A stretch of DNA of 43,954 bases, the filler included, from Jimgerdemannia flammicorona (taxonomy: Eukaryota), in the NCBI GenBank assembly GCA_003990765.1. It is 2 parts of 2 records of this genome, joined end to end, with 100 filler letters (N's around TTAATTAATTAA, not from the genome) between each part and the next. Parts side by side here need not be neighbours in the genome. Positions count along the whole stretch, not along the records: positions 1 to 21,929 come from RBNJ01001364.1; 1 more part is not named here. One strand, written 5' to 3'. A program made the position numbers and the translations under genes. Positions 2,317-30,300 of this stretch are shown here, piece by piece (positions within the stretch are counted from its first letter, which is position 1; each line of letters opens with the position of its first letter). The notes under the pieces are model-generated. The model ran no database searches. It was not told the DNA's origin and saw nothing but the letters and a program-made list of their open reading frames with translations.

Positions 2317-2689
2317 TCTTCTTCATCATCACTCTCCTTTAGGAGAGCTAGTGGTTTGTCATCCTCTTTCTCCTTCTTTTCTTATCTTGCTTGTTTCTTG
2401 AGAGGTTTCTCTCTTCTTTCATAGTAGATTTTCATAATTCCACTGATATACATCATCAATATATTTCATGCAGTATATCTTGATTCTATGAGAGCAGACT
2501 CCTTATGATATATATTCTTTAATAATTCTTTTGCACTATTCTTCTTTACTAATCCATCTGACTTTCTTCTTCTTTTTCTGAGTAGTCACTATATAGTCTT
2601 CTTCTTGCTCACTTTCTTCTTCCTCTATTGCAGGCAGTACTTCTTTATTGATATTGATGGAAATTTGCATCTTCTGATCTCAGTAGATA

Positions 2690-4340
2690 ATCTGCATCTT
2701 CTGAACATTGAGGTCAATTATTGCTCTGGCTTTATAAAGCCACTGGTTACTGATGAGGTGTCATAGTTGGTAGTATTGGTTATGATCACATCTACTGAGA
2801 TGGTTGCTCTTTGAAACTTGATGTGAACATCTCAGATCTTTCCCAGAGATGTGTTTCTTATGTTATCTACTGTGATAAATAGCAAATTAATTACATCTTC
2901 AACCTCTCAACCTAGGTGGTCTGCTGCTTTCCAACTGAGAAGACATCCTCCTGCTTTAGTATCAATAATGGCCTCAAAGATTCTATCTCTAATTTGACAG
3001 ATTGCATAGGCAGATGTCTGATGATTATCTTTACTCTCTTCTTCAGAGTCTTTTTGAACATTATTGGCCTCAGTTATCTTCCAAACTTGCTCCTTAGTTG
3101 TCTTGGCAAGTCCATATCTCATTTACTGTCTAAATGTGGGTATTTTTGCCAACTGACCAAAGGTTGCATTGATCTTCTGTTAGCTAAGGTCCTTGAAGAT
3201 ATCATACTTAAAAGCCTTGGTCTTGCAAAGCTTCTTCTTCTTTTCTCCTTTACTAGCTGGAATAGTTTCTTGAATAGTATCTTAAACAGCCTGTTCCAGT
3301 TTCATATCTTGATCTACTTCTTCACCTTGGCTTTCTGTAGCAGTTTCCATCTGTTTTTCTATAGAGTTCTTCTTGAGTCTTCTTAGTAATCTCTTATAGA
3401 GTTATTTATAGATATTCTTCTTAGCAGTCTCTATAGAGTAGGCTTCCCATTCTTCTTCATCTGATTCCCCAATCTTCTCAAAGGTGATGATATTGACCTG
3501 TTTCTTGTTTTGAGTAGTATTACTTGACTGGGCCTTATATTTAGTTTCACTTATATATTCATATAAGTAGTGGCCTTCTTCTCTACAGATATAGCAGATA
3601 ACTCTCTTCTTGTCTGAGTGGGTGGCAAACTTTTGAACCAGGCAGCAGTCTCTTTTTCTAATTTCTTTTACCATATCTCCTAGATGGGCTGTCATTTTGG
3701 CAAACTTCTTAATAAGTTCCTCCATTGAATTACTATTTCTCTGCTACTCAGTAGCTCTTGGCTAAGATGTGTTTCAATTGATCACTAAAGTAGAGATTAT
3801 GCTTATTGCCTTGAGTACTTCAATTCTGACTCTAGTAACTCTTTTTATTGTATAGTCTTATAGATATCTGGCTATCTAGTATTGTTGAGCATAGTTGATC
3901 TTCTGTACTAGATTCAGTACTACTGATGATGAGCAGATAGTCATAGCTATCTCAGAGTGAACTCCTTTCATAAAGGTTACTTCTGCTACTTGATCTTGGA
4001 TAGTATTAGTATAATCAATAAGAATTATCTAATATCAGATTCTGATATAGAATGTGTTTGGATCTTTACTTATTCCTTGATATATTATATTAAGCTGATC
4101 CTTCAGGGCTTGCTTGATCTCATCTATATAATAGGTGGTTCAGAGCCATAGTTTGTAGCTGTAAATACTGCTATTGCTGGTCTTAGATACTGAAGTATAT
4201 GAGAGCTACTTACTGTAATACTGTCAGAGTCCTTACAGCAGCATAATGTTCAAAATTATCAATGAAAGTATTGATTGGTTCATCTGAGGTATATCCATAG
4301 AATACTGATGGTCCTATATCTATCTTGTCTAGATGTCTTA
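2690..4340 (-). pseudogene. gag: Gypsy gag and aspartic protease, degenerate
   Basis: N-terminal PSVFYGYTSDEPINTFIDNFE; CX2CX4HX4(C>Y) knuckle in ORF 3402-3725; protease D-T-(G>K) motif in ORF 2907-3122. Confidence 0.8.
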
Positions 4341-7825: not shown

Positions 7826-10033
7826 TTATAGGGGTGTTTTGCCCGCCATAGACAACACCTTCTTGTTCTGCTTCTCAACTAGCTTCTTTAAGTTGAGACC
7901 GCGATAAATAACTGGGCTGTACTTCACAGGACAGTGTTGAGACAGAGTATTCATCACTCTGGCAGCCAAAGATAGTGCATGACAATGGTAATAATTACCA
8001 GAATAATTGTGTATATATGGCATAATATTAATCTCACCAAGCTTAGGGTCAGATTCTTCATTATTCGCATGAGAATCCTCCGAAAGCATTCAGGAGCAGT
8101 CTTGATAAGATTCAAGACTCAAAAGATAAGCAATCCGATTCTGTTCAAAGGTACATCATACCAAAAACTGACGGAATTCGGCAATCGCTACTTCATAATT
8201 GTCATATTCTGATGAGTTCCGGATAAGGCAATTATTCTTGCCTCTAAGCCATCCATCGATGTATGCTTGGGGATAATACATATCTGGCATAGAATATATA
8301 TGAAGATTCATATCTTTATCATAATTTCGGAACTGAATTGACCGAGTCTTATCAGCGTTGATTTTTACATATGCTTTAAGATCGCAAAATGTAACTTCAT
8401 CAGCTACATGTTGTGTGAAATAAAAACTAGAGCTCATCGTTTCCAACGATGTTATAACATACTTTGCAGCTTCATCGCCCTTATCCATAATGATAATGAT
8501 GTCATTGATGAATCAGAAGTAAAGTTCCAGCAAAATCCCTCAGTCATCAAGCCTCAGTTCATGAAAGGCCATAAAGAGATTTGCTACATTGGGTGCCGAA
8601 GGCGTTCCCAATGCAATTTCTCAAATTTGTTGATAGGTATGTCCGGCATATTAAATAAATGCAAACTTAAGCACAAAGCACAATACCTTCATGTAATATC
8701 AGTGGGTATGTTCTTTGGAATGATCAAATTGCATAAGAACTACAAATATTTTCCATAGACACTTGTTGATGTTGATGTTAGTATACATTGACTCAATGTC
8801 TGCTCTAGTAACATCATGGATGTGGAAAAGAACTTTCCTTCAACATGATTAATTACATATTTGGAGTCAGGAGCTACCATTCGACACATAGAAATATATG
8901 GTTTCAGATAGGCATCTACAGCTCTCGAAGCATCGCTGGTAATCCAGCTGTGGTTCGGAGAGATAGGTCGTGATTAACAGGAATTTTGTGAAGTTTCAGT
9001 AGAATATAGAATTCCGGAATCTTACATTTCCAAGGGAAGCTTGCCATGACTTCACCTGTTTGAGGGCCAAATACGAGACGTTTCTGTCAAGCTTTTAGGC
9101 TTCGTCAATCAATAACATGAGAGACGTATTTGCCTCAGCGGAATTGAAAGGCTTCTCAATGAACGTCAACATATCAGTGAGGTGACTCAACACTTGTAAG
9201 TCATACAAATCATAATCCATAAGTATAAGACCGAGTCTTTTATCAGCTTCACGAACAATAAGGTAATTATTTCGCATAAAGTCATGTAGATGTTTGATGG
9301 CGTGCAAGTAGCAGTTATGAGGATTTATTTTATTTGCCTTGTCAAAATGGCATACAAAGTTACTCTCCACAACACGAAGACCGAAATCAGCTCGAGTAAT
9401 CAAGCCTTTGTCCCAGCCTTGTTCTTTTGCCCCTTCAAGGACTTCTTGACAGACAGATCGCCAGCTTTGGCGGGCCTGTTCAATGTCAAGATAAGTTTGA
9501 AAATTGAAGTTAAGACCTTTGTTTAACAAGTCAATGATGTCACTCGGAATTTCGGAGACGTGAGAAATATTATTAACAAAAACATTCTTATTTGGAATAT
9601 TTCGGAAACTTACTGTTTCCCATCTTTCGAACCAGACTTCTCTGGCCCTCCTTTGCCTTTGGTCACAGTGTTTTTCGCCTTCTTCAGCGAATCCTTTTTC
9701 GGGGTCAGCTTCTTGTATGGCATGGCTGTCGCCGACACTTTCGATTTGGCCTTCCCTTTCACAGGGCCCATTACCTTCAGCTTGTTTGTTGGCTTTGCAT
9801 TTTCCTTTATCTAAAGACAAGAGAATGTGAGTATCAAGCCAGATAAAAAGCAATTTGATCAGCCCGAAGGCTTCATCAATATGGACATGCAGCATAGTCA
9901 CTCTTACTTTTTTCTCTGGGGCCAGAATGGCCTTGACATACATATTGTGCAATTCGTTAGTGAATTCACTAATGGTATACTCTAGGTGTGCTTTGGTGAG
10001 CTGATAATGCCTGTCATCCTCATGGAATGCCAT
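7826..10033 (-). pseudogene. Penelope-like reverse transcriptase with frameshifts and stops
   Basis: LLNKGLNF; IVREADK; IPEFYILLKLHKIP..RPISPNHSWIT; ADIESMYTNI; EIALGTPSAPNVANLFM; FIND (YIDD site); FCDL; YDKDMNLHIY; ends GLNLKKLVEKQNKKVL with no nuclease domain. Confidence 0.85.
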
Positions 10034-10123
10034 CAGCTTAGGTTCTAATTCTCCCCGAAGAGAGGTGATCAGGCTGTTGAGTTCAGAGTTGCACTCCTTC
10101 CAAACTTATTGTTTGGACGTGAT

Positions 10124-10560
10124 TAGTGCTCCGAACGAGTCAATTCAAATCAAATCCAGATTCGATTTGTCACATGATAGTTTGATTCGAATCTCAAATC
10201 CAAAGCCATCCGGATCAACTCAGATTTAATCTGAATCACCCCATCCGAATCGCCCCATCCGAATCACCCATCTGAACCACCCCAATCCGAATCACTCAAT
10301 CCGAATCACTCAATCCGAATCGCCCCATCCGAATCACCCCATCCAAATCACCCATCCAAATCACCCATCTGAACCACTCCAATCTGAACCACTCAATCTG
10401 AATCACTCAATCCAAATCACTCAATCTGAATCACTCAATCCAAATCACTCAATTCGAATCCTCCAATTCGAATCCTCCAATTCGAATCCTCCAATTCGAA
10501 TCCTTCAATCCGAATCCTCATCTGAATCCTTCAACCGAATCCTCCAATCCAAATCCTCCA
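10124..10560. repeat. Left TIR and subterminal tandem array (units like CCGAATCACTCAAT / CCGAATCACCCCAT)
   Basis: More than 20 short GAATC/AATC-core units, many with CpG>TpG or CpG>CpA variants; typical of transposase-binding arrays. Confidence 0.85.
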
Positions 10561-10653
10561 CATGACTCATATGCCGGATGCATCCACAACACAACACATA
10601 CATACGCATACACACATACGCATACACATGCACACACAAACATGCAAATACAC

Positions 10654-13242
10654 ATGTCGACAGATCAGTCTTCAACAGTTCACAGTACCAATGATGCTTT
10701 AAGTCAAACATCTCTGATAGTTCCACACCTTACATGCAATCCTCGCTCCGAAATCTGGTAACATTGTACTAAGATAGGAGATGATGTTGTTTGTAATTAT
10801 TGCAGGTAAAAAATTAAGATGTACCTATTGCCACTTTGTTTTGACACACACATGATATTGTTTTGACACACACATGATATTGTTTCATCCACCCCCATGA
10901 ACTGCACCAGCCAGAAGTTCAAAATGCTTGGAGGTATGACTTCGAACATGAATCAACACATAAAAGACAAGTACTTTGACAAAATCAAAAAGAACACAGA
11001 GACAAATAAAATCGACATCCAGGCTGTGGTAGGTACATTAATCCAATTGCCTGACCATTTCTGTACCAACACATTTAATCAAAAATTTTAGCCATACTCT
11101 TTGGCAGAATTTCGAAATCGGCTCATTCGCTGGATTGTGTATACAGACCAGCCATTCACAACCATCAAGAGTGATCAATTGCATAGCATCTTTGGCCTCC
11201 TCAAGCATGATTTATATTTGCCAAGTACTGATACTATTTGCAAAGATGTCCTGGAGGCCTATAGGAAGGAGCATGACAATCTCCGCCAGACACTTCAGGT
11301 AAAATAAGGGCAGCACCATGACCTTTGTAAGCTGAATTATACAAAAGAGCTCACCAATTTAACCTCACATTCAATAAGCCGAATTCGGCAGGCAAAATTT
11401 CGTTTACGATTGATACATAGACATCCCCCAATGCAATTTCGTTTCTGGGCATTACCAGTCATTGGATTGACCTCGATTGGCAGCTTAAATCTCTCACCCT
11501 TGACTTCATCAAACTTGCTGGCCCTCATTCTGGAGACAACATTGCAGATGCTTTTATTAGTTGTATTGAGAGCTTGGGATCACCACCAAGGTAAAAAAGG
11601 GGGGCTTGCTATCAGGTTGGCGTTTTGAGAGAGGTCCTAAACCAAACCAGATTTTATTGGTTACTTATTTTCACATAAATTTGTCAACCAAATATTTCAA
11701 GTACAGATTTTGGCCATTATGACAGACAATGCTACAAACAACTCAACATTTTTCCAAGGTTTAGCGACCAGCCTCAAACAGGAAAACGTGGCCTTCAGTG
11801 CAGAAAGCTGCCATGTGCGATGCCAGGCCCACGTACTGAACCTCGCTGTTCAGAACTATCTTATACACATAGACAAAACATCTGAGAGAGGAGGGGCCCT
11901 GAGTATAATTTCCAAGCTGCATAAACTGGTTGTGTCGGTCTGATCATCCCCACAATGACAAGAAAAATTCGCTGCGCAGTGTAGGGCAATCAGTTTAGCC
12001 CCGAAAGAGCTTATATTGGATGTCTGTACATGTTGGAACTCAACATTTGCAATGATCCAGTGCATGCTGGAGTTTGCTGTGGTATGCATTCTTTTTTTCT
12101 TCAGTTGGCTGAAGCAACTATTTTGGATGATGGAAGATTTATTTAAAAAAAAAAGAAAAAAAGCCAATAGATTCAATGATGGCTGCCGACAAGGAAATAT
12201 GGGCCAAGGCTCTAGGTGAAAGTGAGTGGGATGTACATAGGAATGTTGTCAGAGTTTTGGAAGTAAGTGGTGGTTGCCCTGGCTCTACACTCGTTTTGTC
12301 TGCCTCCACACAGTGCAATACCTCACCACATATAACTGCCAGTGTTTCAACGATTGTTCAAAGGATATAGTCAAACAAATGACCCCGACAATAAGCTCTG
12401 CTATACCGGTATACAACCTTCTGATTGACTGGCTAGAGGACAAGCTCGAGGACAGGCTGGAGGGTTGTGGTGATTTATGGTTAAGCCCAGATCAGAGAGA
12501 TGCTATGGTGGTTGCTCTAAGTAAGCTTAGAAAATACTACACCCAAATAGATACTGCCATATACTCAATCAGTACAGGTATGTCAATGTCAGCATGTGGC
12601 CATTGCCCCTTCCAAAACAGAGGAAACCTGGCAAAAACTCACTCTCCTTTTCTTCAAACAGTGCTGGACCCACGCTTAAAGCTACAATACCATAAAGATC
12701 AGGGCTGGGAGCAGCACTTCATTGAGAGAACCAAGCAGGCTGTAATTGAAGTGTACTGGAAAAACTACACACTACTGCAAGATTCTAGCCGAAGTCCAGA
12801 TAAATATGCCAAGGGATCCCTCCTGTCCCACATTTACTTCGGCAGAAAGAGGAAGAGGGAGCCATCAGTGGAAGATCTGCCATCAATAAATGAACTTACC
12901 ATTTACCTCGCCAGCAACCACGTGGTCCTGCTGGAGGGCATGGAGGTGCTCAACTGGTGGAAGATGGGTTGTCAGGCGAGCATTGGGCCAATTTAACCCA
13001 CCAATCAAACCCACCAATCTAACCACCACTCTACCCACTGGAGCATGCAGCTGCATCAAACAGACTTCCCCAGCCTGTGTGGTATGGCTTGGGACTACCT
13101 GGCGATTCCTGCCTCCAGCACTCCCATCAAGTGGGTGTTCTCAGGTAGGGTGGACCTCGTTGCCCCAAAGAGGTGTGCGCTGAATACTGAGACAATCCAG
13201 GCATATATGTGTCTGAAGTCTTGGTGGGGCTCAGGCTGCTAA
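10654..13242 (+). pseudogene. Intron-containing hAT transposase (BED finger, DDE core, C-terminal dimerisation domain), inactivated
   Basis: RSEIW*H...VCNYC|...TSNMNQH; LIRWIVYTDQPF; ISFTIDT*TS; HSGDNIA; MTDNATNN; RCQAHVLNL; TCWNST; LDPRLK; WWK...FPSLCGMAWDYLAIPASSTPIKWVFS (catalytic E>K); MCLKSW. GT-AG introns at about 10806, 11029, 11299, 11591 and further downstream. Confidence 0.92.
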
Positions 13243-13344
13243 AATTTGGCAGGTCCGCGGATAAGTTGGTTGGCCTTGTGGAATATTTAATACCTTTCAA
13301 ATTAATAAAAAGGAAAAAAAACCTGAGGACTTGGCCCAGAGTTT

Positions 13345-13790
13345 GCCGCCAAAGTGGGGCAGGGTTGGCGGCAGCAGCGGCGGAGGGGGTATGCAAGGGG
13401 CAGCCCCAAGCTGCCAGTGCCTGGGTCAGTGGGTGGGTTGGTGGGCGGGTCGGCGGAGGGAGCATGCAAAATTTGTGGCCCTCTGCCAGCAGCAAGGGGC
13501 AGCCCCAAGCCGCAAGTGTCCGGGTTGGGGGGGGGAGACGGAGAGAGCACACAAAATTTGTGGCCCTCCACCAGCAGTGAGAGGCAGCCCCAAGATGTCA
13601 GTACCTGGGTCAGTGGGCAGGGTCGGTTGGCGGGCGGGGCAGGTGGAGGGAGCACACAAAATTTGCAGCCCTCCGCTAGCGGCATAGGGGCAGCCCCAAG
13701 CCGCCAAGGAGTCTGGGGCGGAGGGTGCTTCTGGTGGTCGGAGGGTGCTTCTGGCAGTCGGAGGGCGTTTCTGGCAGTCAAAGTCACTAG
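13345..13790. repeat. GC-rich degenerate tandem repeats between the 3' ends of the transposase and cargo genes
   Basis: GGCAGCCCCAAG recurs four times and GAGCA(C/T)(A/G)CAAAATTTG three times; units about 90-110 bp, plus short GGAGGGTGCTTCTGG repeats. Confidence 0.8.
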
Positions 13791-13989
13791 TTCGGGTCTC
13801 ATGGGCACCCCAGCCCTGTACCACAGCACTGCACCAGTGGCACTACAGAGCAGGGCTGAGGGGCCGGTAGGGCCCTGTATAACGGCTAAGCTAGTGCTAT
13901 ATAAGAGGCACCCGGCCCAACCCCCGCACATAAGACTGCCCAACCCGCACAAAATGGCTGCCTAACCCTCACAAAAGATTGCCTAACCC

Positions 13990-16035
13990 TTACAAAAACT
14001 GCTCCACTTGCTGGTCCCAGGCCTTGATGAGCCTGTCATCTGTTGTGAGTGCGACAACTGTTGTGTCCAAGCTCTCCTCGAAGGCGACGGTGCCATGGTG
14101 GTCATGTGGTTGGAATAGGATGACCATGTTGGCCGCAAACAGGACCCCGAAACCCTAGGTGAGGTCATACCAGACTCCGCCACTATCCTCCCAGGTTGGG
14201 CCCTTTCTTTCCGGGATGTAAAACATTACCGGGATGACATTGTTATCTGTGTGTGTGGGCAGAGAAAGGTTGCACCTAACATATCCTGATGTGATGCGAG
14301 TGTACAGTTGGTGAACCCTTGGCCCAGGACCTCATACTGCCAGGCTGTGCTGGTGGATGCCTGCCCTTAGTCCAGCCCCAGGAGCCCCGGCTTGGAAACC
14401 TGCCAAAACAGACGGCAACTGGTCAGTCCTTTTTGCGTTCGGGGGGCAGAAACCCCCCGGGCCGCAGAAACCCCCTGGGCTGCAGCACCCCAAAAAAGCA
14501 GAGGTCCTCACCTCATACGGCATGCTAAATTGCGCCAAGAACATATGTACAGCCGCGCCGAGATCACCACCAAGCTGGCCTGCCATATGCTCTACCAATC
14601 TGCTCAAAGAACCCCAGATCATAGCCACCATCACCGCACAGGCCGTGTCGTGCTCACGCACAGTTTGCTCTTCAATACCACTTCTAAAGTTCTGGTAGGA
14701 GTACAGAATCTTGTGTATCCCTGGAATTGTATCAAAAAGAGTATGTCGGTGAAGAGTGATTTATCTGGGGAGGGGTTAAAAAAAAAGGGAGATAAGTACA
14801 GGGGATTTCGGAACCCACCCTTCACCAGTGTTGCAGTATACTCAATTCTCATCCAAACCCCCCTTCCTTGCTTTTTTCGCCCCCTCTTCCCTACCACCCA
14901 GTATTTGATGCAATCTTCGCAAATCTCGTTGATGTGGTGGTGAAGCTTGTCACCATAGAGGTTCCTTACCACCATCGCAACCACCTCTTTGCATTCATTA
15001 ATAAAGATATGGTTCTCTTCATCGTTGGTCACTCCTACTGACCAATGGACCCCTTGGTCGAGTACGATTGGCTCTGATTCGAATATAGACCCCCAAGCCT
15101 TGATGATGATGCTGGTACTACTCATGCTGAACATCTTGCCCTCAAATTTCTCTATTTGATCAGATGCCGGATGTGGTTGAACTTGGGTAACTTTGAACTC
15201 TCCTTTCCAATGGAACTGAGCCCTGATCTGAGGGACTGAGATAAGTATGTGGACAGGTTGCGTGCAGGTGGGTTGCATGCAGGTTGGTTGTGGGCGGGTT
15301 GCATGTGGGCGGGTTGCGTGCGGGTGGACGGGTTGCATGCAGATGGGTTGTGTGTGGGTTGCATGCAGGTGTGGGTGTTTTTTAGGGGGAGACCATGTAA
15401 AAATGAAATTAAATAAAACACAGAGATGGGTATTTCAGAAAAAGAGCATGAGTGAGTGAGCTGCATGCCAATGAGTTGCATGCCGACGAGTTGCACACTG
15501 ACGAGTTGTACGAGTTACACAAGAATTGCTCACCAAGGCTTACTTCTGTTCCTTTTGAGACCTCCACCATGTGATGCATTGACTCAACAGCTCAGCCACC
15601 AAAGGCATGCCCCACAATATCTGCCAGCCTTTCTTCATCTTGACCAGATGTTGCGAATAAAGTCGGCAGATCTCGCCGTAGAGCTGTAGATCCTAAGAAA
15701 AGCATAAGGTGAATTGGGTCATCCTGGGGAAGTTTAAATAAATAAACACAAGTAAACAAGTGGTGGCCGAGTGAGCAACCTACATCTACTATCAGCTGCT
15801 CCAAAAAGGCTGCCACATACATAGCTGTGAGGTCTGTGAATTCCGAGGTCCGAAGGGCTGCTGTGAGTTGTTGCCAGAATTCTCCCTTATCCCCGCCATC
15901 GCCATCGCCACTGCCACTGCCATCACCCCTTTGGCTCTCGATGAGCAGCTTGTGTGCTGTCCATATGAGAAAGAATCTAACATTGTCAGCAGAGAGTGCG
16001 TTTCCATCTTGAATACTCCCTCTTTTGATGATCAT
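13990..16035 (-). pseudogene. Spliced cargo gene of the hAT element with a C-terminal Fe(II)/2OG dioxygenase-like (TET/JBP-like) domain; point stops present
   Basis: Exons ...14720-14512, 14399-14276 and 14246-13990 join at GT-AG sites in matching phase: ...FSMPYE|VSKPGLLGLD*GQASTSTAWQYEVLGQGFTNCTLASHQDML|DNNVIPVMFYIPERKGPTWEDSGGVWYDLT*GFGVLFAANMVILFQPHDHHGTVAFEESLDTTVVALTTDDRLIKAWDQQVEQFL. Upstream exons near 16035-15780, 15692-15534 and 15235-14900; one junction is unresolved. Confidence 0.65.
15247..15520. repeat. Short tandem repeats (GGGTTGCATG(C/T), GAGTTGCA) within an intron of the cargo gene
   Basis: About 15-bp units repeated many times; they produce low-complexity shadow ORFs. Confidence 0.75.
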
Positions 16036-16237
16036 TGCAGGGTGAAAAATGAGTAGACTGAACCAACATACAAATTAAGGGCTGCTGTTTTGTTTGCTCG
16101 TAATGCAGCAGGAAAGAACAAAGAAAAAGAACAAAGAAAAGAGAGGGAACAAAGGAAAGGGTGATGTCACCAAAGTGCGGCAGAAAAAAAAAACAAAAGC
16201 GAAATGAACAAAAGAAAGGGTGACATCACCAAAGATT

Positions 16238-16459
16238 TCAATCTGAATAGATCAATCCAGATGGTTCAATCCAGATGGATCATCTGGATGGATCATCTGG
16301 ATGGATCAATCCAGATGGATCAATCTGGATGGATCAATCTGGATCAATCTGGATCAATCTGGATCAGATCATGAGACCAATCCAAGTTGATTCAAATCCA
16401 TCACATGACGAATCTGAATTGAATCTCATCCAGATCAACTTCATTCATTCGGAGCACTA
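16238..16459. repeat. Right subterminal array (GGATCAATCT / CCAGATGG units) and right TIR of the hAT element
   Basis: Direct 10-14 bp units ending in TTCGGAGCACTA. Confidence 0.85.
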
Positions 16460-19400
16460 CTTATGCTAGTTGAGCTTTGCTCCAGAGTATACCTCATACC
16501 ATTCCACTGTTTCCTGAAGAGCCTCTACATCCACTACTGATCTAAGTCCAACTATCATATCATCTGCAAAGGTCCCCACCTTCCACTCCACATCATACAC
16601 AGAGAGCCCAGCCACCTTCCAACAGATCCTATCTATCAAAGGTTCTAGAGAGAGGGCATAAAGGATAGGGGACAGCAGGTCTCCTTGAGGGACTCCTCTC
16701 CCCAAGGGAAATGCCAAACCCCTGTAACCATTACACATCAGTGCCACTCTACTTCCCTCCAACAAACTCAACATAGAAGTCCAAAACTGTGGTGGAATAC
16801 CAATTCTGTCCAGTATCTTGCCCAGCCAAATCTGCCAAACATGGTCATAGGCCTTCTCTGGTTCAGAAAAACCAGTCTACCATTCAGTCCACAGGTCTGG
16901 ACTCCTTCAATAATGCCATGTACCCAGGCAGTCCCATCCCTGATAAGTCTACCTCCTACAAAGCCCCACTGCTCCTCTCCCAGCATCTGTTGAGCAACCT
17001 TCTGTAGCCTCACAACAATCACCTTAGTCACCAACTTCCGATCCATATCCAGAAGCATAATTGGCCTCCAGTTCTTCCAATCCTCATGCCTGCTCTTGTC
17101 TTTGTACAATAGGGCCACCAGCCCTAAGTCCTGCTCTCCAATCCACATGCCATTTAGAATAACATGGTCACAGAGGTCTGCCATCTCTCCCAGCACTCCA
17201 GGGACTTTTGCCATCTTCTTTCAGAAGTCCCACAGTAACCCATCCTCCACTGGCGCTGTTCCAAGCTTAGTTGCTGCCAGGACTTCTTGAATCTCCTCCT
17301 CCTAGACTGGTAAGATCAAGTCGCTCAGTCCCTCTATCTGTGGCAGCTCCCACTTCTCCAGCATGTCTCCAATTGCCTCTGCATCAGCCCCCCCTTCTTT
17401 TTCACTCTACAGCCCCTGCCATTTCTCCTTCAATACCCCCAGAATCTGCTGTATGCTATGCACCAACTCTCCCTCAGCATCAAAGACTCCATCCTATTGA
17501 TATCTCACCTGCCTGGCTTTGAAGAGTCTAGACAAGTATCTAGTAGGCCACTCTCCCTCCTCAAGCCCCTGCCACCTTCGCCTGGCAGCCATTCCTCACA
17601 TATGAGTCTCCTCCTCCTCTCTTAACACCTGTTGCAGTTCAACCACCTCCAATTTTGCCCTCTCTAACCTCCAATCCTCCACCTCATTGGATGTAAGCAA
17701 ATCAGCCCACTCCAACTGCAATCTCCTCAGCCTATTTGAAGCACACCATACTCGCCTCCTCCTCTGTCTCTCTGTCTCTCTACCTGCTCCTCCTCAAAAG
17801 ACCCTCGCAGCATCCTTCAATCTCATCCACTGGACACCCACAGACAAACCCTCTTGCCTTCAGAGAGGAACCTTTGCCTGGATATCCTCCATCTATAAGT
17901 TCTACAACTCCTTCTCAGCCAGCAGGGAGGAGTTAAGGTACTAATGTCCAGGTCCATCTCCACTCCCCCCAAACTGCCTCTGTCTAAACAGTTCCCAGTG
18001 ATCAGATGATGGGCACTACACCACCTCCAAAGTCTTTCAGACATCAGCACCCCAACATTCAGCTGTCAGAATCCAGTCAATCCTTATCCCTAAGCCATTC
18101 ACCCAGTGTATGTAGACCCTGGTGTTGCCCCATCATGTTTGGCCCATATCCTCTAAGGAGCTAAGGTTTTTCCCCTCCTTCTATACATCCAGACCACCAC
18201 TCCTCCTACCTGCATTCCTCTCTCTATCAGTTCTATCCAGTCACAGATCTCGAACCATGTTAAAATCACTACCAAGAACATCAACCCCTTCCTCCAAGAG
18301 AATGCCCTCCTCTAGCAGCTCTATAATCCATGCAATCCTCTCTCCCCTAACTGCCAGGCAGTAACAAGAGCCCACCCTCACTAATCCCCACCCTGGCCAG
18401 TACTATTTACTCCAGACTAAGCAATCCCCCCAGCTCCTGATTTCCCCCAAATCTCCTCTACCCTTCTTTACCAGAATTGCCACCTTTCCAAACCAAGTGG
18501 TAGCCCCACCCCATTCCTTAGTCCACTCCAACCTATCATCCTCATCCTCACACCATACATCCTATAGTAAAAAGAGATCAGCCTCTAATCACTTTAGCCA
18601 AGTAAAAATGTTCTTATGCTGCCCAGATCCCTGAAGGCCATTCACATTGAGAGAGAAAATATTAGTTATACTGTTCATAAGGAATATTATTAAAGATCAA
18701 ACTTCTCCTCTACAAATCCACACTCAAGTCCTCCTGTATCAAATCCAAGATGTATTCTGCAGCCAGTTCTCTCTTCTCAGCTTCCTGTGCCTCCAACCCC
18801 CCCAGAAGTTCGACCAATGCCCCATCCTCTTTCTCCTCAAAGTCCTCCCAATACTCCACACAGGTCTCCTGCCAGAACTGCAAACCATGGCATTCTGCCC
18901 AATAGTATTCAGTCTGCTCACCAGCAACAACCACCAGCTCTGCCTTCCTCACCTCATCCACCTCATATCTCTTCTCTTCTAGGAAGATTGCAAGAATCTC
19001 TACCTTCAGCACCTCCACTACTCCCTCTCCTTACAGAATCTGAGCTCAATGCTCCTCAGGCATGACACTAAGATCTACTTCTCCCAACACCTCAGCTGCA
19101 AGATTATCCATCACCTTGCTCATCTACAGCAGATTCCCCACCTCCTTCCCTCCAGGGGTCCCCAGCCACTCTGCATCCAGTATCATAGTATCAGCACCTA
19201 CACTAGCATCCTCATTCCACTCCTCCTCTGGGACATCCACCAGCTCATCCTCACCAACTACCACTATCTGGCCCCCTTTCACCACATCTGGGACTCCAAA
19301 GTGAACACACTGGGTCCTGTGCATCAGTACATCCTCCGCCACCCCTCTCTGCCCCACTGGACCCCTCCTGACAAGTGGGGGGGGGGTGCTATCCAACTCC

Positions 19401-20823
19401 TCCTCCCAAACTTCGAAAGTACTATCAGTATAGGGATTCTTACCCAGCACCTTCACAGCCCATTTCTTGGTCACCCCCACCTCCTCTCCTTCTTTGCTAG
19501 TCTATATACTGGCTTCGATGCCTCCAGACTTCTCAGCCCTGTCTACCTTCCTCTTCTCCCCTCCTGTCATATTTGCCAAAAGCTCCCTCTGCCTCTTGCG
19601 CCCCTGGGTCTGCTCCCACTGTCTCCTGTCAGTACAGATATACCTTCTATCTATTACCTCTAGATATGTCAACTCTTCAAACTGCTTCCAGGCTTTTGCC
19701 CTCCTCTCCATCGCACCACTCAGCTCCTCCAGAGCCTCCAACAAATCCTCCTCCTCCTCTTCACTCCCTTTCACCCTTGACACCTTATGGATAAAAGCCC
19801 CCCACATCAGCACTGGGGGCCAGTCACTCGTCTTTCCCGTTGCCTCCTTTCCTGCCAGCTGAATCCTAACATCGACATCACCTGTCCTGAATGTGGTCCC
19901 CTCTCACATTTGGAAGCTAATGTCCACCACATCCCCATACTCCACCATCACCTCCTTTACCCTCCTCCTGGTCTCCTCCTTAGTCACCATAGGCACCCCC
20001 CTCACCAGAAGCTGCACCACCCTGGGGTCCAACCTTAAGCACTACACTATGGGGACCACCACTTTTTCAACTACAACTCTAGTCTTCAGGGCCTCGTCCA
20101 GTGGGCCCGCCTCCTCAAAGCCCACCTCAACCCCTTCTAGGCCCTTCAGAAACTTCACCAAGGCTGCCCCAGCCACCTGCTTCGAAATAAGCCCCAGAAC
20201 CATCCTAGCTGTCACCACCAAGCCTTGGAAGCACAAGGTGGCTGCAAACTCCAAGATTGATTTCTTGAGTAATAGAGCTATCGCCAGCCCCATCACACTA
20301 TCAGCCAGGTCCTCCTTCCTCTTCAGGCCCATCTGCCCAGCCCCTGCATCAACAGTCACATCTGGATTTTTTTCCAGATTCCCCATCATGCCACCATCAG
20401 CAGTCCCACTACTACCACCAGCAGCTACTCCACTTCCTCCACCTCCCACTGGTGAAGGCCCAGCTCCCTCAGCCTTCTCAATCATCTGCTTTCTCTTCCT
20501 GCCTGCCTGTCTACTGCAAGCCCCCACCAGCCAATCCCCAGTCCTCAGCATGTCCACAAAGCTCCTTCTCTACTGCCCTCCAGCCCCCCCCCAAGTGCCT
20601 CCTCCACTGCCTGAGCTGCCCTGCCCATTTGAGCCACCAAATGACTCCATCCCCAGCCCATACCCTCTCCTGACATGTTGCCAGTCAAAGGCCCCAGGTC
20701 TGCCTGACCTAGTATGCTCATCAGCTTACTTGCTGGTTGATATTGCCTTAATAACTTTCTCCAATAAATGATTTGAAAGTATGTTGTAAAAGTGTGTGGA
20801 ATGTGAATTGTAGTTGAGGGAGA
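16460..20823 (-). mobile_element. L1/Tx1-like LINE (5'UTR, ORF1, APE endonuclease, RT), 3' part removed at the hAT end
   Basis: ORF2 starts at 18678 with MNSITNIFSLNVNGL; GDFN; RIDWIL; NWRPIMLLDMDRK; GVPQGDLLSPILY; FADD; SGAKLN. ORF1 start codon reads ATA. Confidence 0.92.
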
Positions 20824-23100: not shown

Positions 23101-24385
23101 CTTTGCTGCAGTCTAACACACTTAGGCGCGATTTGTCAATATCGTGATTGTGATCGATCTACTTAAACAAGATAAGGTGGGCTGGGTTACCTTGAAGGGA
23201 CAGAAGGCCTATCGTTGTCAGCTTGATTATTATTCTGGACGTTCTGGTGAACGACACCCGGAATTGTGGAGTCAATGTAATGTCAGGTGTAGTGTAAGGA
23301 GTGAAGGTAGTGTCGGACATAGTTTTGGAAGCGGAGTGAACGTAGTGTTGGAGGATTGGGAGTGGAGAGTAGGGTTGGAGGGAATTGGAAAAAAAAAAAA
23401 AGGATAATTCGGCGGCCAGTGAGTGACTACGAATCTTTTGAAGTTGTGGCTATAAAGCGTTAGTTGTTTGAGCTTTCACAATAACCTCCCGCAGTCCTTT
23501 AATAATCATATCATTGCCAACGTAATACTAAAAAATATAATATAATAAATACAATTTATGATATATAATTATTTAATTAGAATTTGAATTCAGAGGAAGA
23601 CATTTTTTTTTTTATTTGTTAACAAAAAATAAATTATTAAAAAATAATATTTAATATTAACTTTATTATATCTAATACTTCCAATAAATTCAATGGAGTC
23701 AACCTCTATTTTATTTGAATCTTTTAAATTATATCAAAAAATAAATATAGTAATTTGAACTTATTTCGCCTCAGGGTACGCACGGTCCCGAGTCATAATG
23801 TTGGTAGCCCGGGTGGGGTGCCAAGTACGAAAGAAAACCGATCCAAGAGCTCTAAGCCCTCGAGCGAAGCGCAGAATAAAAAAAGTACCCTGATCATACC
23901 CTGCAGCGTGATAATCGATTAGTTTTACCCTAGGGTACCAGTTTGCAGGCTTAAAGGTCAGGTGCATATGGTACCCTGGCACCTGACTAAACCTGCTTTA
24001 ATTGATGCAGAGTATTGTGCTCATTCAATCAGTGGAAAATTCTGCTCATCATCTCTCTATATATCTATATATATCACACTATACTATATATTTCCTTAGA
24101 TATTTTATCTATTATATTAGCATTATTATGGATAAGTTTTTATAATATTATATATATATAAGTTTATACAATTATTAGAAGAGTTTTAATAAAAATTTTA
24201 TATCAACCCTAATTTGATACTTATGTCCTCCAATCTGATCTCATAGTGAAAAAAAAAATTACAGACAAGATTGAATTGGAGTTAATGTAAATATTAGGAA
24301 GAATAAAAGATAGCTTGAAATAGTCAAAGTAGATATAAATACCAAGGAGAATTATAGACAGATATCAAGCTAATGAAGTATCTAT

Positions 24386-27300
24386 TAGTACTTAGAACAA
24401 ATCAAATCAAATTGAATTTGGACTAAATTCAATTTAATTCAAATAGTTCTTTTTTTTTTTTTTTTTTATAGTCACTTGGACTCCTTTCCTTTATTAATAC
24501 CCATCTATCCCATATAAATACAGTGATCCCACTCCCTATTCAATCCCCCTAGGGGGCCCCCCCCCTCCCTACCTCTTTCTGATGAAAGACTACTTTGTCT
24601 AACACCATCGCCACCCTCCCACTACTCTGCTCACAGATCCTTACCACCAAACTGCAATGTCGACCCCTCTGAGGACCCCAACCCACCCACCATCCAGTCA
24701 GCAGATCCCACAACAGCCCCTCCTATCTTAACACCTTCTCCTGCAGCCCCAACCACTGCCCCTCCTCAAATACAAAAAGCCAATGTCCTGCCAGTCCCAC
24801 CCATACTGCTAATACCCACCCTACAGTGAGTCAACTATCATCCACCCCATCTACAAGCCGAGATCTCAAGTCCTCCCAGCAACCCCCCTCCCCCACCAGC
24901 CTATGCCCCACACTCAATCTATCTCCTATTTTAGCCCAAAATTCCCCCAAAACCTCACACTCTTCCAGCCAATGTTCTGGTATCTGTACATGACCCTCAG
25001 CTCGCCCAACATCATAACACTCCTCACATTTGAATTGTCCACCCTCTACCAAATGCTCTATGTGGAAATTAGCATAACATTCCTCTGCAATATTCTCCAC
25101 CATACCACCCAGAACTTGGGAGGAAGCCACCTCCATACCTCTGCACTCCAAGACCAGATACCTGCCCAGTCCCACTCCTCACTAATCTCTGCTGCCTGCC
25201 AGCCACTCAGCCAAAGATCCTGGCCAAGCCCCTGCTAATACTCTACTCCCTCCCCAATATTGAATATAGCCAGTGGAGTACCCCCCAGGAGCAGTCTATC
25301 CCAACACCACATATTAGGCCCCCACACCACCCCCTCATTGCCTTGCCAGTGCAGGCCAATTCGGTGTGCTCTATCAGCCACTCCCCACCAAAAGCCCTTG
25401 AACTGCAGCCTCCGAATTCCATTCAGCCCTACCAAAGAGAGCAGATCTCCAGAGGACCCTCGAGGGGATGTTTGCATCTCCCACACCTTCTGCAGCAGAG
25501 GTACCCAACCTCCTCCCTGCAGTTCCACCACTCTCTTCAATCACCAGGCTTGTAAGCAGTGCAGCCTCTTAGGGAAATCCACTAGGCCAAGACCTCCTCT
25601 GACTACTGGTCTTACAAGAGTATCCCAACTAACCTGGGACCTCCTCCCTGCCCAAATCCAATCCCTAGCCACCTTCATCAGCTTCTTCACCACCTATGCT
25701 GGGAAGTCAAGGTGATATGCCATATACCACAGCTTGGAGAACCAATATATATTCAGGATTGATACCTGCTCTACTAGAGAGATATGGCAGCCTCCCCAAC
25801 CTCAAAGGGCCTCCCCCCAAATATTCACCCTGCTCTCTCACCACACTCATGGCAAGACAGAACCATATACAGAGAGGAAGATGCCCAGATACCGCACTAC
25901 CTCACCAGTAGGGACAATTGTTCCAATAATGTCCCCACCCACTAGCCCATTCCCTAGCACTATCATCTAACACTTATACCAGTTGAGCTTCACTCCCGAG
26001 TGAGCCTCATACCATTCCACAGTCTCCTGAAGTATCTCTACATCTGCCACAGACCCAAGTCCAACCACTATATCATCAGCAAAGGCCCCCACCTTCCACA
26101 CTATACCATATATAGAGAGCCCTGCCACCTTCCAGTGAATCCTATCCATCAATGGCTCCAGCAAAAGGGCATAGAGAATAGGGAACAGAGAGTCCCCCTG
26201 AGGAACTTCTCTTCTCAAGAAAAATACCCTCCCACAGTGACCATTATATGTCAGAGCTGCCCGACTACTTTCTAGCAAACTCAATATAGAGGCCCTAAAT
26301 CTTGGGGGCATACCAATTCAGTCCAATACCTTGCCCAGCCACACCTGCCATACATGGTCATAGGCCTTCTCCTGGTCCAAAAAGACCAACCTTCTATCTA
26401 GTCCACAGGCCTGGGCCCCTTTAATAACATCATGAACCCATGCAGTCCCATCTCTTATAAGTCTGCCCCCAACAAAGCCCTGCTGCTCCTCCCCCAGCAC
26501 CTGTTGGGCAACTTTTTGCAGCCTTGTGACAATCACCTTAGTCACTATCTTCCTGTCCATATCTAGAAGCATGATCAGCCTCCAGTTCTTCCAGTCTTCC
26601 CTCCTCCCCTTGTCTTTGTACAATAAGGCCACCAGTCTGAGATCCTGCTCTCCAACCCACTTACCACTCTGAAGGACATGGTCACAGAGAGCAGCCATCT
26701 CACCCAAAACTCCAGGGACATTTACCATCTTCTTCCAGAAGTCCCATGGTAATCCATCCTCCCCTGGTACTGTCCCAAGTTTAGTTGCTATCAGGATACT
26801 CTGGATCTCCTCTCCCTGCACTGGTAAGATCAAGTCACCCAGTCCAGCTACTTGCAGTGGCCCTCACTCTTCTAGTATATCCACAATCTCTGCCTCATCA
26901 GCACCCCCTTCTCCCTCACTCTACAAGCCCTGCTATCTCTTCTTCAAAACCCCTAAGATTTGTTGTGTGCTATGTACTATGTCCCCATCATCATCCAGGA
27001 CCCCATCCCACAGATGTCACACTCTCCTAGCTTTGAGAAGTCTTGATAAGTACCTAGTAGGCCACTCACCCTCCTCAAGCCCCTGCCACTATAGCCTAGC
27101 AATTATACCCTATATATGAGTCTCCTCCTCTTCCCTCAACACCTGTTGTAGTTCCACTATCTCCAATTTTGTCCTCTCTATCCTCCAATCCTCCACCTCA
27201 ACAACAGTGAGCAAATCCACCCACTCCATTTGTAGTCTCCTCAGCCTGCTGGAAGCACACCTTGTACACCTCCTCCTCTGCCTCCTGGCCTCTCTACCAG

Positions 27301-30300
27301 CTCCTCCCCAATAAACCCTTACAGCCTCTTTCAATCTCATCCAGCAGACAGCCACAGGCAAACCCTCATACCTCCAGATAAAAACTTTTGCCTGAATATC
27401 CTCCACCCACAATTCCCACAACCTCTTCTCAGCTAGCAGAGAGGAGTTAAGGCACCAATGTCTGGGTCCATCTCCACTCCCTCCAAACTGCCCCTGCCCC
27501 AACAGTCTCCAGTGATCAGACCATGGGCACCACTCTACTTCCAATGCCTTCCAAACATCCAAACCCCAGTACTCTGCCATCAGAATCCAGTCAATTCTTG
27601 TGCCCAAGCCATTCATCCAATGTATGTAGACCCTGGCATCACCCCACCTTGTTCTGCCCATATCCCCTAAAGAGCTCAACGTCTCCATCTCCTCCCATGC
27701 ATCCAGACCTCCACTTCTACCCCCAGCACTCCTCCCTCCATCAGTTCTGTCCAGATGCTGATCCCGAACCATATTAAAGTCCCCACTGAGAACATCAACC
27801 CCTTCCTCCAAGAGAATACTCTCCTCCAGCAGCCCCCTAATCCATGCAGTCCTCTCACCCCTAGCTACAGGGCAGTAGCAAGAGCCCACCTTTACTGAAT
27901 CTCACCCTGGCTGATGCCAATCTCCCCAGACCAAGCGATTGCCCCAGCTCCTGATTCCCCCCAAGTCTCCTCTGCCCTTCCTCACCAGAATCACTACCTT
28001 TCCAAACCAAGCAGTAGCCCCACCCCATTCTCTCCTCCTGCACCAAGTCCAAGTCATGTTCAGCAGCTAGTTCCCTCTCCCCAGCTTTCCATGCTGCCAA
28101 CTCTCCCAGAAGTTCTACCATTGCCCCATCTTCATGCTCCTCAAAGTCCTCCCAATACTCCAGACAGACCTCCTGCCAGAGCTACAGACCATGATGCTCT
28201 GCTCAACAGTATGTCGCCTGCTCACCAGCAACCACTCCCAGCTCTGCCTTCCTCACCTCATCAACCTCATATCCCTCCTTCTCCAGGAAAATTGCCAGAA
28301 TCTCCACCTTCAGTGCCTCCACTATTCCATTACCATGCAGAATCCATGTCCAATACTCCTCAGGCATCGCCCACAGGTCTACTTCCCCCAAAGCCTCTGC
28401 TGCAAAATTATCCATCACCTTGTGCATCTACAACAAGTTCCCCACCTCCTTCCCTCCTGGAGTCCCCAGCCACCCTGTATCCAATATTGTGGTGTTAGCT
28501 CCTACACTGGCAGCCTCATCCCACTTCTCCTCAGGGACATCCACCAGCTCATCCTCACTAACCACCACCACCTAACGCCCTTGTGCCACATCAGGGACCC
28601 CAAAGCACACCTGCTGGGCCCCCTGCATCCATATATCCTCCATCATCCCTCTCTTCCCAACTGGGCCCCTCCTGATAAGTGGGGGGGAGTGGCATCCAAC
28701 TCTGGCTCCCACACTTCAAAGGTACCATCAGCAAATGGGTTCTTGTCCAGCATCTTCCCAGCCTCTGCCTCCTTTGCCTCCACCTTCTCTTCTCCTTTAC
28801 CAGTCCAGATACTGGCCTTAATGTCTCCAGACTCCTTAGCTCCAATCAACTTCTTCTCCACCCCTCCTGTCATACTTACCAACAGCTCTCTCTGCCTCTT
28901 GTGTCCCTGGGCCTGCTCCTACTACTTCTTATCCATATGGATATGCTTCTCGCCCACAACCTCCAGATATATTGACTTCTCATACAGTTTCCAGGCCTTT
29001 GCCCTCCTCTCCACAGCACCACCCAACTCCTCCAGTGCCTCTAACAAGTCCTCCTCCTCCTCTTCACTCCCTTTCACCCTTGACACCTTGCAGACGATGA
29101 CCCCCTACATCAGCACTGAGGGCCAGTCACTTGTCTTCCCTGTGGCCTCCTTCTCTGCCAACTGAATCCTGACATCAATGTCACCTGTCCTGAAAGTTGT
29201 CCCCTCCTACAACTGAAAGTCAATGTCCATCATGTCACCATACTCTACCATAACCTCCTCTACCCTCCTCCTAGTCTCCTTCTTTGTCACCATGGGCACC
29301 CCCCTCACCAGAAGCTGCACCACCCTGGGATCCCACCTTAAGCACCTCACCATGGGGACCACTACCTCCCCAACCACCACTCCAGTCTTCATGGTCTCGT
29401 CCAGTAGGCCTGCCTCCTCAAAGCCCACCTCAACCCCCTCTAGGCCCTTCAAGAACTTCACCAAGGCTGTACCAGCCACCTACCTTGAAATAAGCCCCAG
29501 GACCATCCTCACCGTCACTACTAAGCCCCTGAAGCACAAGATAGCCACAAACTCTGAGATCGATTTCTTGAGCAACAGGGCTACCGCCAGTCCTGTTACA
29601 CCATCTGCCAGGTCCCCCTTCTGCATCGGGAACTCCTGTCCCCCCTGGCCATCAGCCATCACATCTCTTTTTTTTTCCTGATTTATCATCACACCACCAT
29701 CAGCAGTCACACCACTACCCCAGCCACTACTCCACTCCCTCCACCTCCCACCAGTGAAGACTTATCTCCCCTGGCATCTCCAACCTTCTGCTTCCCCTAC
29801 CCTCCTGCCTGTCCACTGCAGGCACCTACCAGCCAACCCCCAGCCCTTAGTGTATCTACAAAGCTCCCACCCTACTGCCCTCCAGCCCCCCCACCAGTGC
29901 TGCCTCTGCCACCTGAGCTGCCCAGTCCACTCGAGCCCCTGAAAGACCCCATCCCTAGTCCATACTCTCTCCCAACATGCTGTCAGTCGAAGGCCCCAGG
30001 TCCACCTGACCTAGGACATGCATCAGCTCGCTTGCTGGTTGATATCTCCTTAATATCTTTCTCCAATAAACGATTTGAAAGAGTGTTGTAAAGTGTGTGT
30101 AACATGAATTGTAGTGGAGAGAGATGTCAATCAGAGCAAGCAACTCATTAATTCAAATAGTTCAAATCAAATTGAGTGCCAATTCAATTTGAACTAATTC
30201 AAATTTGTATCTAATTCAATTCAAATTGAATTAAGTCATAATTTAAATTAAATTGAATTTGAAACTAAATATAATAAATACAAATATATGCAATATAACT

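Follow-up and report, generated by a model that had tools for sequence, protein, structure and literature searches.

A decayed hAT transposon of Jimgerdemannia flammicorona with a convergent passenger gene for a putative, highly divergent TET/JBP-like dioxygenase

Genes of the TET/JBP dioxygenase family occur in seven transposon lineages of rust fungi, among them 20 TET-bearing hAT7 families from six Puccinia species, for which escape from silencing has been hypothesised (Kojima 2025, Biology 14:1741, PMC12730594). A transposon-borne DNA demethylase would be a counter-defence against genome silencing, and such elements have been catalogued only recently, in three fungal lineages. The DNA analysed here (the window) is a stretch of 43,954 nt from Jimgerdemannia flammicorona (assembly GCA_003990765.1) that joins two parts of this genome. 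Positions 10124-16459 of the window hold a single, decayed copy of a DNA transposon of the hAT superfamily. Tail to tail with its transposase lies a passenger gene, referred to below as the cargo. The reading put forward is that of a decayed hAT element whose passenger gene encoded a very divergent Fe(II) dioxygenase with a double-stranded beta-helix fold, belonging to the TET/JBP branch; from the sequence evidence, its probability is put at roughly 0.6. An initial annotation of the locus had likewise proposed a hAT transposon with a convergent TET/JBP-like dioxygenase gene. The element, the gene and their arrangement are all recovered, while the identity of the enzyme is a matter of remote homology.

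The pairing of hAT and TET is not new, because it was published for the Puccinia hAT7 families (PMC12730594), and the initial annotation, which knew of no established hAT association, is outdated on this point. In both cases, a hAT transposon carries a TET/JBP-type dioxygenase gene (a putative one in the present element) beside its transposase, the genome subjects its repeats to methylation and mutation, and escape from methylation-based silencing is proposed. The termini differ. The hAT7 families in the part of Table S1 that was compared start with CAACGGTGGGC or CAGCGATGGGC, whereas this element starts with TAGTGCTCCGAA, a 12-mer that is not found in the text of that supplement as consulted. 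The hAT7 elements make 7-bp duplications, and none is visible at this element. Three hAT7 families have their TET gene upstream of the transposase and co-oriented with it, whereas the cargo gene here is downstream and convergent. By eye, the PU-type motif GG-x-M-W-x-x-G-W-R-K and the Arg in R-L-G-x-S are both missing from the cargo. Six peptide motifs of the cargo family, and then two more, were looked for in the consulted part of Table S1 and none occurs there (PMC12730594). Judged by its ends, its arrangement and the type of its predicted enzyme, this element is not one of the published hAT7 or PU-type families.

The perfect inverted ends, correctly placed in the initial annotation, lie within inverted arms of 20 nt that are 85% identical overall and are separated by 6296 nt (Table 1). 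Each end is followed inwards by a subterminal array, and the units of the left and right arrays are approximately the inverse of each other. In the right array, about eight copies of the 14-bp unit occupy 16238-16344. The transposase, annotated on the plus strand as it is here, is identified by its C-terminal dimerisation domain, which lies in the last transposase open reading frame (ORF) and matches Dimer_Tnp_hAT with 44.3 bits (cut-off 21.4). Read-through translations also contain, judged by eye, a CxxC...H finger and the motifs D.WTS and RC.AH.LNL; the pieces read as a candidate BED-type finger and RNase-H-like core have no Pfam or PDB match. In-frame stops are present at 10758-10760 (TAA), 11418-11420 (TAG), 11941-11943 (TGA) and 11956-11958 (TGA); with at least four stops, the transposase is dead. 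No target-site duplication is present at the element ends, which are flanked by GACGTGAT and CTTATGCT. Duplications made by hAT elements are usually 8 bp long, and 5-7 bp in some lineages.

The cargo gene occupies the minus strand at 16035-13990, where an intron-bearing gene had been annotated, and is modelled with five exons, the first two of them tentative. The peptides VIPVMFY, GGVWYDL, GVLF..NMVILF and HHGT are present as first described, and the three stops are found at the positions given at that time (TGA at 15594-15592, TAA at 14369-14367 and TAG at 14157-14155). The catalytic region is read differently. The initial annotation spliced the last exons to yield HQDMLD and placed the metal-binding His in HQD (14291-14283). 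The intron that this splice requires would be only 29 nt long and is rejected: undoing a 1-nt deletion near 14311 restores the frame, and the 77%-identical relative P0003 reads through. The deletion is placed there because P0003 follows window frame 0 as far as GQGFT and frame 2 thereafter. The last exon is one piece (14399-13990), and the putative metal motif is the H-T-D of PTHTD (14253-14245). Of the two His residues in HHGT, the second (14097-14095) is the distal His, and it follows the Asp of H-T-D by 50 residues. Each stop had been described as one transition from a sense codon, but two of the three look like transversions. This is likely for the TAG because the aligned residue is Tyr in all seven sequences of alignment A3, and for the TAA because P0003 has Glu at the aligned position. 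With three stops and one frameshift the cargo is dead in this copy. The transposase has stops too, and this copy, already called dead in the initial annotation, is inactive now.

The last exon, with X in place of the TAG, was searched by phmmer against 1.84 billion representative proteins (E <= 1e-3). Seven proteins were returned, and five of them are true relatives (P0003, P0004, P0005, P0007 and P0009). The closest is P0003 (77% identical, E 2.9e-48), followed by P0004 (E 7.4e-29) and the 374-aa P0005 (E 2.5e-8). The remaining hits, P0006 and P0008, were set aside as long repeat proteins with a compositional match. Exons 3 and 4 align in order along P0005. A word search with P0005 gave a further relative, P0025, as its sole match; when the 267-aa ORF was the query, word-index protein searches of the 'longer' and the 'near' length class gave none. 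The relatives all come from short metagenome or read-assembly contigs and are annotated as 'hypothetical protein' at most, and no cargo relative was found in viral contigs. Two metagenome contigs, L001 and L002, carry a gene of the cargo family in AT-rich DNA. Where the genes can be compared, their introns have the same two positions and phases as window introns 3 and 4; the phase-1 intron that ends exon 3 is at the same place in L001. Small shares of the cargo gene 31-mers (0.05-0.18) occur in nine sequencing runs, eight of which are soil metagenomes. The passenger is a real, conserved multi-exon gene family that is small and has relatives elsewhere.

All seven sequences of alignment A3 have both His residues, and the Asp is kept in six of them, with Asn in P0007. 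The motif reads HTD or HVD in the relatives and HVN in P0007 and in the fragment P0009, which also has Asn at the Asp position. Near-identical cluster mates of these two proteins, P0010 and P0016, have HVD, and P0009 is also cut off before the distal His. P0007 and P0009 are probably decayed copies, which suggests that other genomes, too, hold multiple, decaying copies of the family.

The cargo is probably a TET/JBP-like iron dioxygenase, for which the support is remote but consistent. The only family with a computed match is the phage Tet_JBP group, represented by an alignment of seven proteins seeded from Mycobacterium phage Cooper gp2. Cooper gp2 itself matches Pfam Tet_JBP with E 4e-6 and 26.6 bits, under the cut-off of 34.9. 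In hhalign, the cargo family matches the seven phage proteins with Prob 50.8, E 1.6e-4 and a score of 38.6; the 68 matched columns begin in the strand that precedes HxD and reach the distal His. The alignment places PTHxD on phage PYHRD and HG(T/S) on phage HGVT. When the window-derived rows are removed, Prob is 42.9 and E is 2.5e-4. Among the controls, the score is 15.2 for reversed alignments and does not exceed 24.2 for 40 column-shuffled templates. Identity over the match is 25%, and the Arg that is invariant in the phage proteins, 15 residues past the distal His, is not kept in the cargo family.

An ESM Atlas search with P0025 places unnamed fungal clusters first (Basidiomycota and Mucoromycota; 0.97-0.94). 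Among the 30 matches, seven are in the PF20515 (2OG-FeII_Oxy_6) set and nine are in the PF12851 (Tet_JBP) set, where 15% and 16%, respectively, of the members of the listed cluster carry the domain. The ten best family-bearing matches share one family or clan, as they do for a third of shuffled proteins. PF20515 is taken here to be a fungal Tet-like oxygenase domain, and a literature search on PF20515 or 2OG-FeII_Oxy_6 found no paper. An ESM Atlas search with cargo exon 3 is uninformative (best score 0.77).

By eye, the order of the cargo motifs is like that of the PU-type and especially the PE-type sequences of Table S1 (PMC12730594). The common layout is a G-x-aromatic...G hairpin, helices, HxD, GG-x-aromatic and a distal HG(T/S). 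The PE type is found in transposons of Agaricus bisporus and Pezizomycetes. By eye, it shares with the cargo a very similar core of GG-x-F-aromatic, a run of G-V-x-F/V...N-S/T-hydrophobic and H-G-T/S, and both lack an Arg before the following small-L/M-S motif. The PE hallmark is HxE, whereas the cargo family has HxD (HTD or HVD). Both are too divergent for ordinary profile searches, and the PE type reaches CMD1 in HHpred with E 1.4 (PMC12730594). The AG-type TET of Kyakuja and Zisupton and the Coprinopsis enzyme CcTET are transposon-associated fungal TET/JBP proteins, as the cargo is proposed to be; CcTET oxidises 5-methylcytosine (5mC) and N6-methyladenine, as summarised in PMC12730594. They belong to a different transposon superfamily, and profile searches of the PDB, which includes solved TET structures, gave no match to the cargo.

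Several results weigh against a TET/JBP-like dioxygenase carried regularly by this hAT lineage, and each of the other explanations draws on some of them. With E up to 10, Pfam has no match to the window cargo fragments or to the relatives scanned, including the 12 rows of alignment A4, and no fragment or relative scanned reaches the curated cut-off of Tet_JBP (PF12851). Five relatives have no match in PHROGs. Sequence and profile searches of the PDB give no genuine match; the profile searches return at best a TFIID fragment (E 0.8), and a phmmer match of the last exon to Tako8, a beta-propeller design (E 0.0016 over 26 residues), is spurious. AlphaFold2 models from 9- and 12-row alignments are unusable (mean pLDDT 38.5 and 37.2). 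The profiles behind the hhalign match are shallow (Neff 1.8), and its probability is no higher than 43-51%. There is no RNA run among the nine sequencing runs with cargo 31-mers. The anti-silencing hypothesis has been proposed for all TET-bearing fungal transposons and has experimental proof for none of them, according to the part of PMC12730594 consulted. The blank searches, the hhalign probability, the poor models and the absence of a visible conserved Arg for binding 2-oxoglutarate (2OG) favour the idea that the passenger is a conserved transposon- or repeat-borne gene of another fold and function, in which H-x-D...H and the Tet_JBP match are coincidental. This is unlikely, though still to be reckoned with, because hhalign sets both metal ligands in register with a score above all 42 controls, the language-model search names only 2OG-oxygenase and Tet_JBP families among the named neighbours, and the layout resembles that of the PE and PU types. 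The cargo could also be TET-like in fold with a different chemistry, through another co-substrate or product, or be a non-catalytic iron-binding factor that binds DNA. Algal CMD1 works with vitamin C. In TET2 (R1261 and R1896) and NgTET1 (R224 and R289), two Arg residues hold 2OG (PMC7854593). Most cargo relatives have, by eye, an Arg seven residues ahead of the first His and no conserved basic residue 10-15 residues past the distal His; phage Tet_JBP proteins have their invariant Arg in that interval. The apparent lack of the C5-carboxylate Arg counts against the dioxygenase reading, since TET2 and NgTET1 use an Arg there, and CMD1, which has no functional basic residue at this place, cannot use 2OG (PMC7854593). 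In HHpred, moreover, the similar PE type finds CMD1 as its top match (PMC12730594). However, 2OG-binding residues differ between subfamilies (PMC7854593), the Arg seven residues before the first His could serve the C1 carboxylate, and the absence of the other Arg is read from an alignment without a structure. A change of chemistry or a non-catalytic role is accordingly held to be very improbable.

On a further reading, the gene does encode a TET/JBP-like dioxygenase but is no regular cargo of this hAT family: it was captured once, or remains from some other element that inserted into this copy. The window has no second hAT copy, and with up to two mismatches allowed, TAGTGCTCCGAA occurs in it only at the two ends of the element. 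TET genes are also often transferred passively between transposon superfamilies (PMC12730594). No inverted repeats and no duplications that bracket the gene were found inside the element, and the gene sits between the two subterminal arrays. The right end of contig L001 shares 29 of 34 bases with the left terminus of the window element (score 24; 100 shuffles give 16 or less), about 1.7 kb downstream of L001's distant cargo relative, and is followed by similar short repeats. This match suggests that the association of hAT and cargo is older than this copy. No transposase is seen in L001, and a different gene lies between cargo and terminus, so that the linkage amounts to 'one and a half observations', namely this copy and a 34-nt terminus match. 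Taken together, a one-off capture appears improbable, and regular carriage of the gene by the hAT lineage is preferred. The intervening gene of L001 is intron-bearing, with at least four ORF pieces at 2320-3370 (+); three pieces were scanned without a Pfam match, and it has no counterpart in the window.

CpG reaches 0.29 of its expected frequency across the window and 0.43 across the element, and TpG and CpA are in excess. All four NCG contexts are depleted in the window (0.17-0.37). A TCG-specific hypermutation, which is the Pucciniomycotina pattern, is not seen, as all four contexts are low. Depletion of this kind is what methylated CpG leaves behind when it deaminates, and the value of 0.29 fits the premise of repeat methylation and C>T decay from which the initial annotation started. 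In an intact copy, the enzyme would hold iron by the His and Asp of PTHxD and by the His of HG(T/S) 50 residues on, and would oxidise 5mC in DNA. Host CpG methylation on the element would then be erased or altered, and the transposase would stay expressed. That a transposon-borne, 5mC-oxidising enzyme counters CpG methylation in this way is a hypothesis given somewhat less than even odds.

The gain over earlier work is incremental, as the copy is no longer functional and the general idea has been published before. The locus adds a hAT lineage with other ends and another arrangement. Counts of TET-carrying transposons made by profile search are probably too low, because standard domain searches miss the cargo family. 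The apparent lack of the usual 2OG-binding Arg makes the chemistry of this family worth testing. On a more speculative reading, which is rather unlikely, the cargo would be a fourth type of transposon-borne TET/JBP-like enzyme. Such a type would have HxD, lack the canonical C5-carboxylate Arg, be invisible to Pfam and be carried by a hAT lineage other than hAT7 in soil fungi outside the three catalogued lineages; it might use a co-substrate other than 2OG or, as CMD1 does, make a mark other than 5-hydroxymethylcytosine.

Table 1. Features of the hAT element, in window coordinates
Feature	Positions	Strand	Details
Left terminal inverted repeat	10124-10135	+	TAGTGCTCCGAA, perfect 12 nt; arm reaches 10143 at 85%
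Left subterminal array	10228-10560	.	14-bp unit, ~24 copies
hAT transposase pseudogene	10654-13242	+	several introns; start approximate
hAT C-terminal dimerisation domain (PF05699, Dimer_Tnp_hAT)	12997-13242	+	Pfam E 1.5e-11
Spacer between the convergent genes	13250-13989	.	GC-rich, repetitive
Cargo last exon, putative catalytic core	13990-14399	-	natural stop 13992-13990; lesions TAA, TAG and 1-nt deletion (see text)
Cargo exon 4	14512-14720	-	aligns with P0005 residues 167-240 (E 1e-5)
Cargo exon 3	14819-15227	-	aligns with P0005 residues 93-167 (E 3e-10)
Cargo exon 2, tentative	15544-15723	-	TGA 15594-15592; no relative aligns
Cargo exon 1, tentative	15784-16035	-	ATG 16035-16033; no relative aligns
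Right subterminal array	16238-16366	.	14- and 10-bp units
Right terminal inverted repeat	16448-16459	-	complement of TAGTGCTCCGAA, perfect 12 nt

Short tandem repeats also occur in the interior of the element. In the spacer region, tandem arrays with units of 20 and 21 bp lie at 13719-13779 and 13923-14002, and the long cargo intron 2 (15228-15543) is full of 15-34-bp tandem units that are GGTTGCATGCAGG-like.

The right flank of the element is a reverse-transcriptase (RT) ORF (RVT_1, E 6.5e-11). The RT-bearing repeat has two copies in the window, at 16460-17100 and 25973-26614, which are 78% identical, and their alignment ends exactly at the right-end junction of the hAT element (16460 pairs with 25973). 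Immediately upstream of 25973 is ...CCCTAGCACTA followed by 10 bp, which is reminiscent of the hAT end ...TTCGGAGCACTA; this likeness could be fortuitous, or it could be what is left of an insertion that was duplicated and then deleted. The second copy of the RT-bearing repeat finds no match in the left flank. A 336-aa open frame without a Pfam match adjoins the element on the left (9095-10105, minus strand). This frame does not continue the RT ORF of the right flank, and the flanks seem to be different repeats. The insertion site may be rearranged, because the two flanks look like pieces of different retroelements. Among 20 other long ORFs of the window, Pfam finds only two RVT_1 matches and no host gene. 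A strong negative GC skew (-0.41 to -0.50) is present at 18001-20000 and 24001-30000, beside AT-rich blocks of 25-35% GC.

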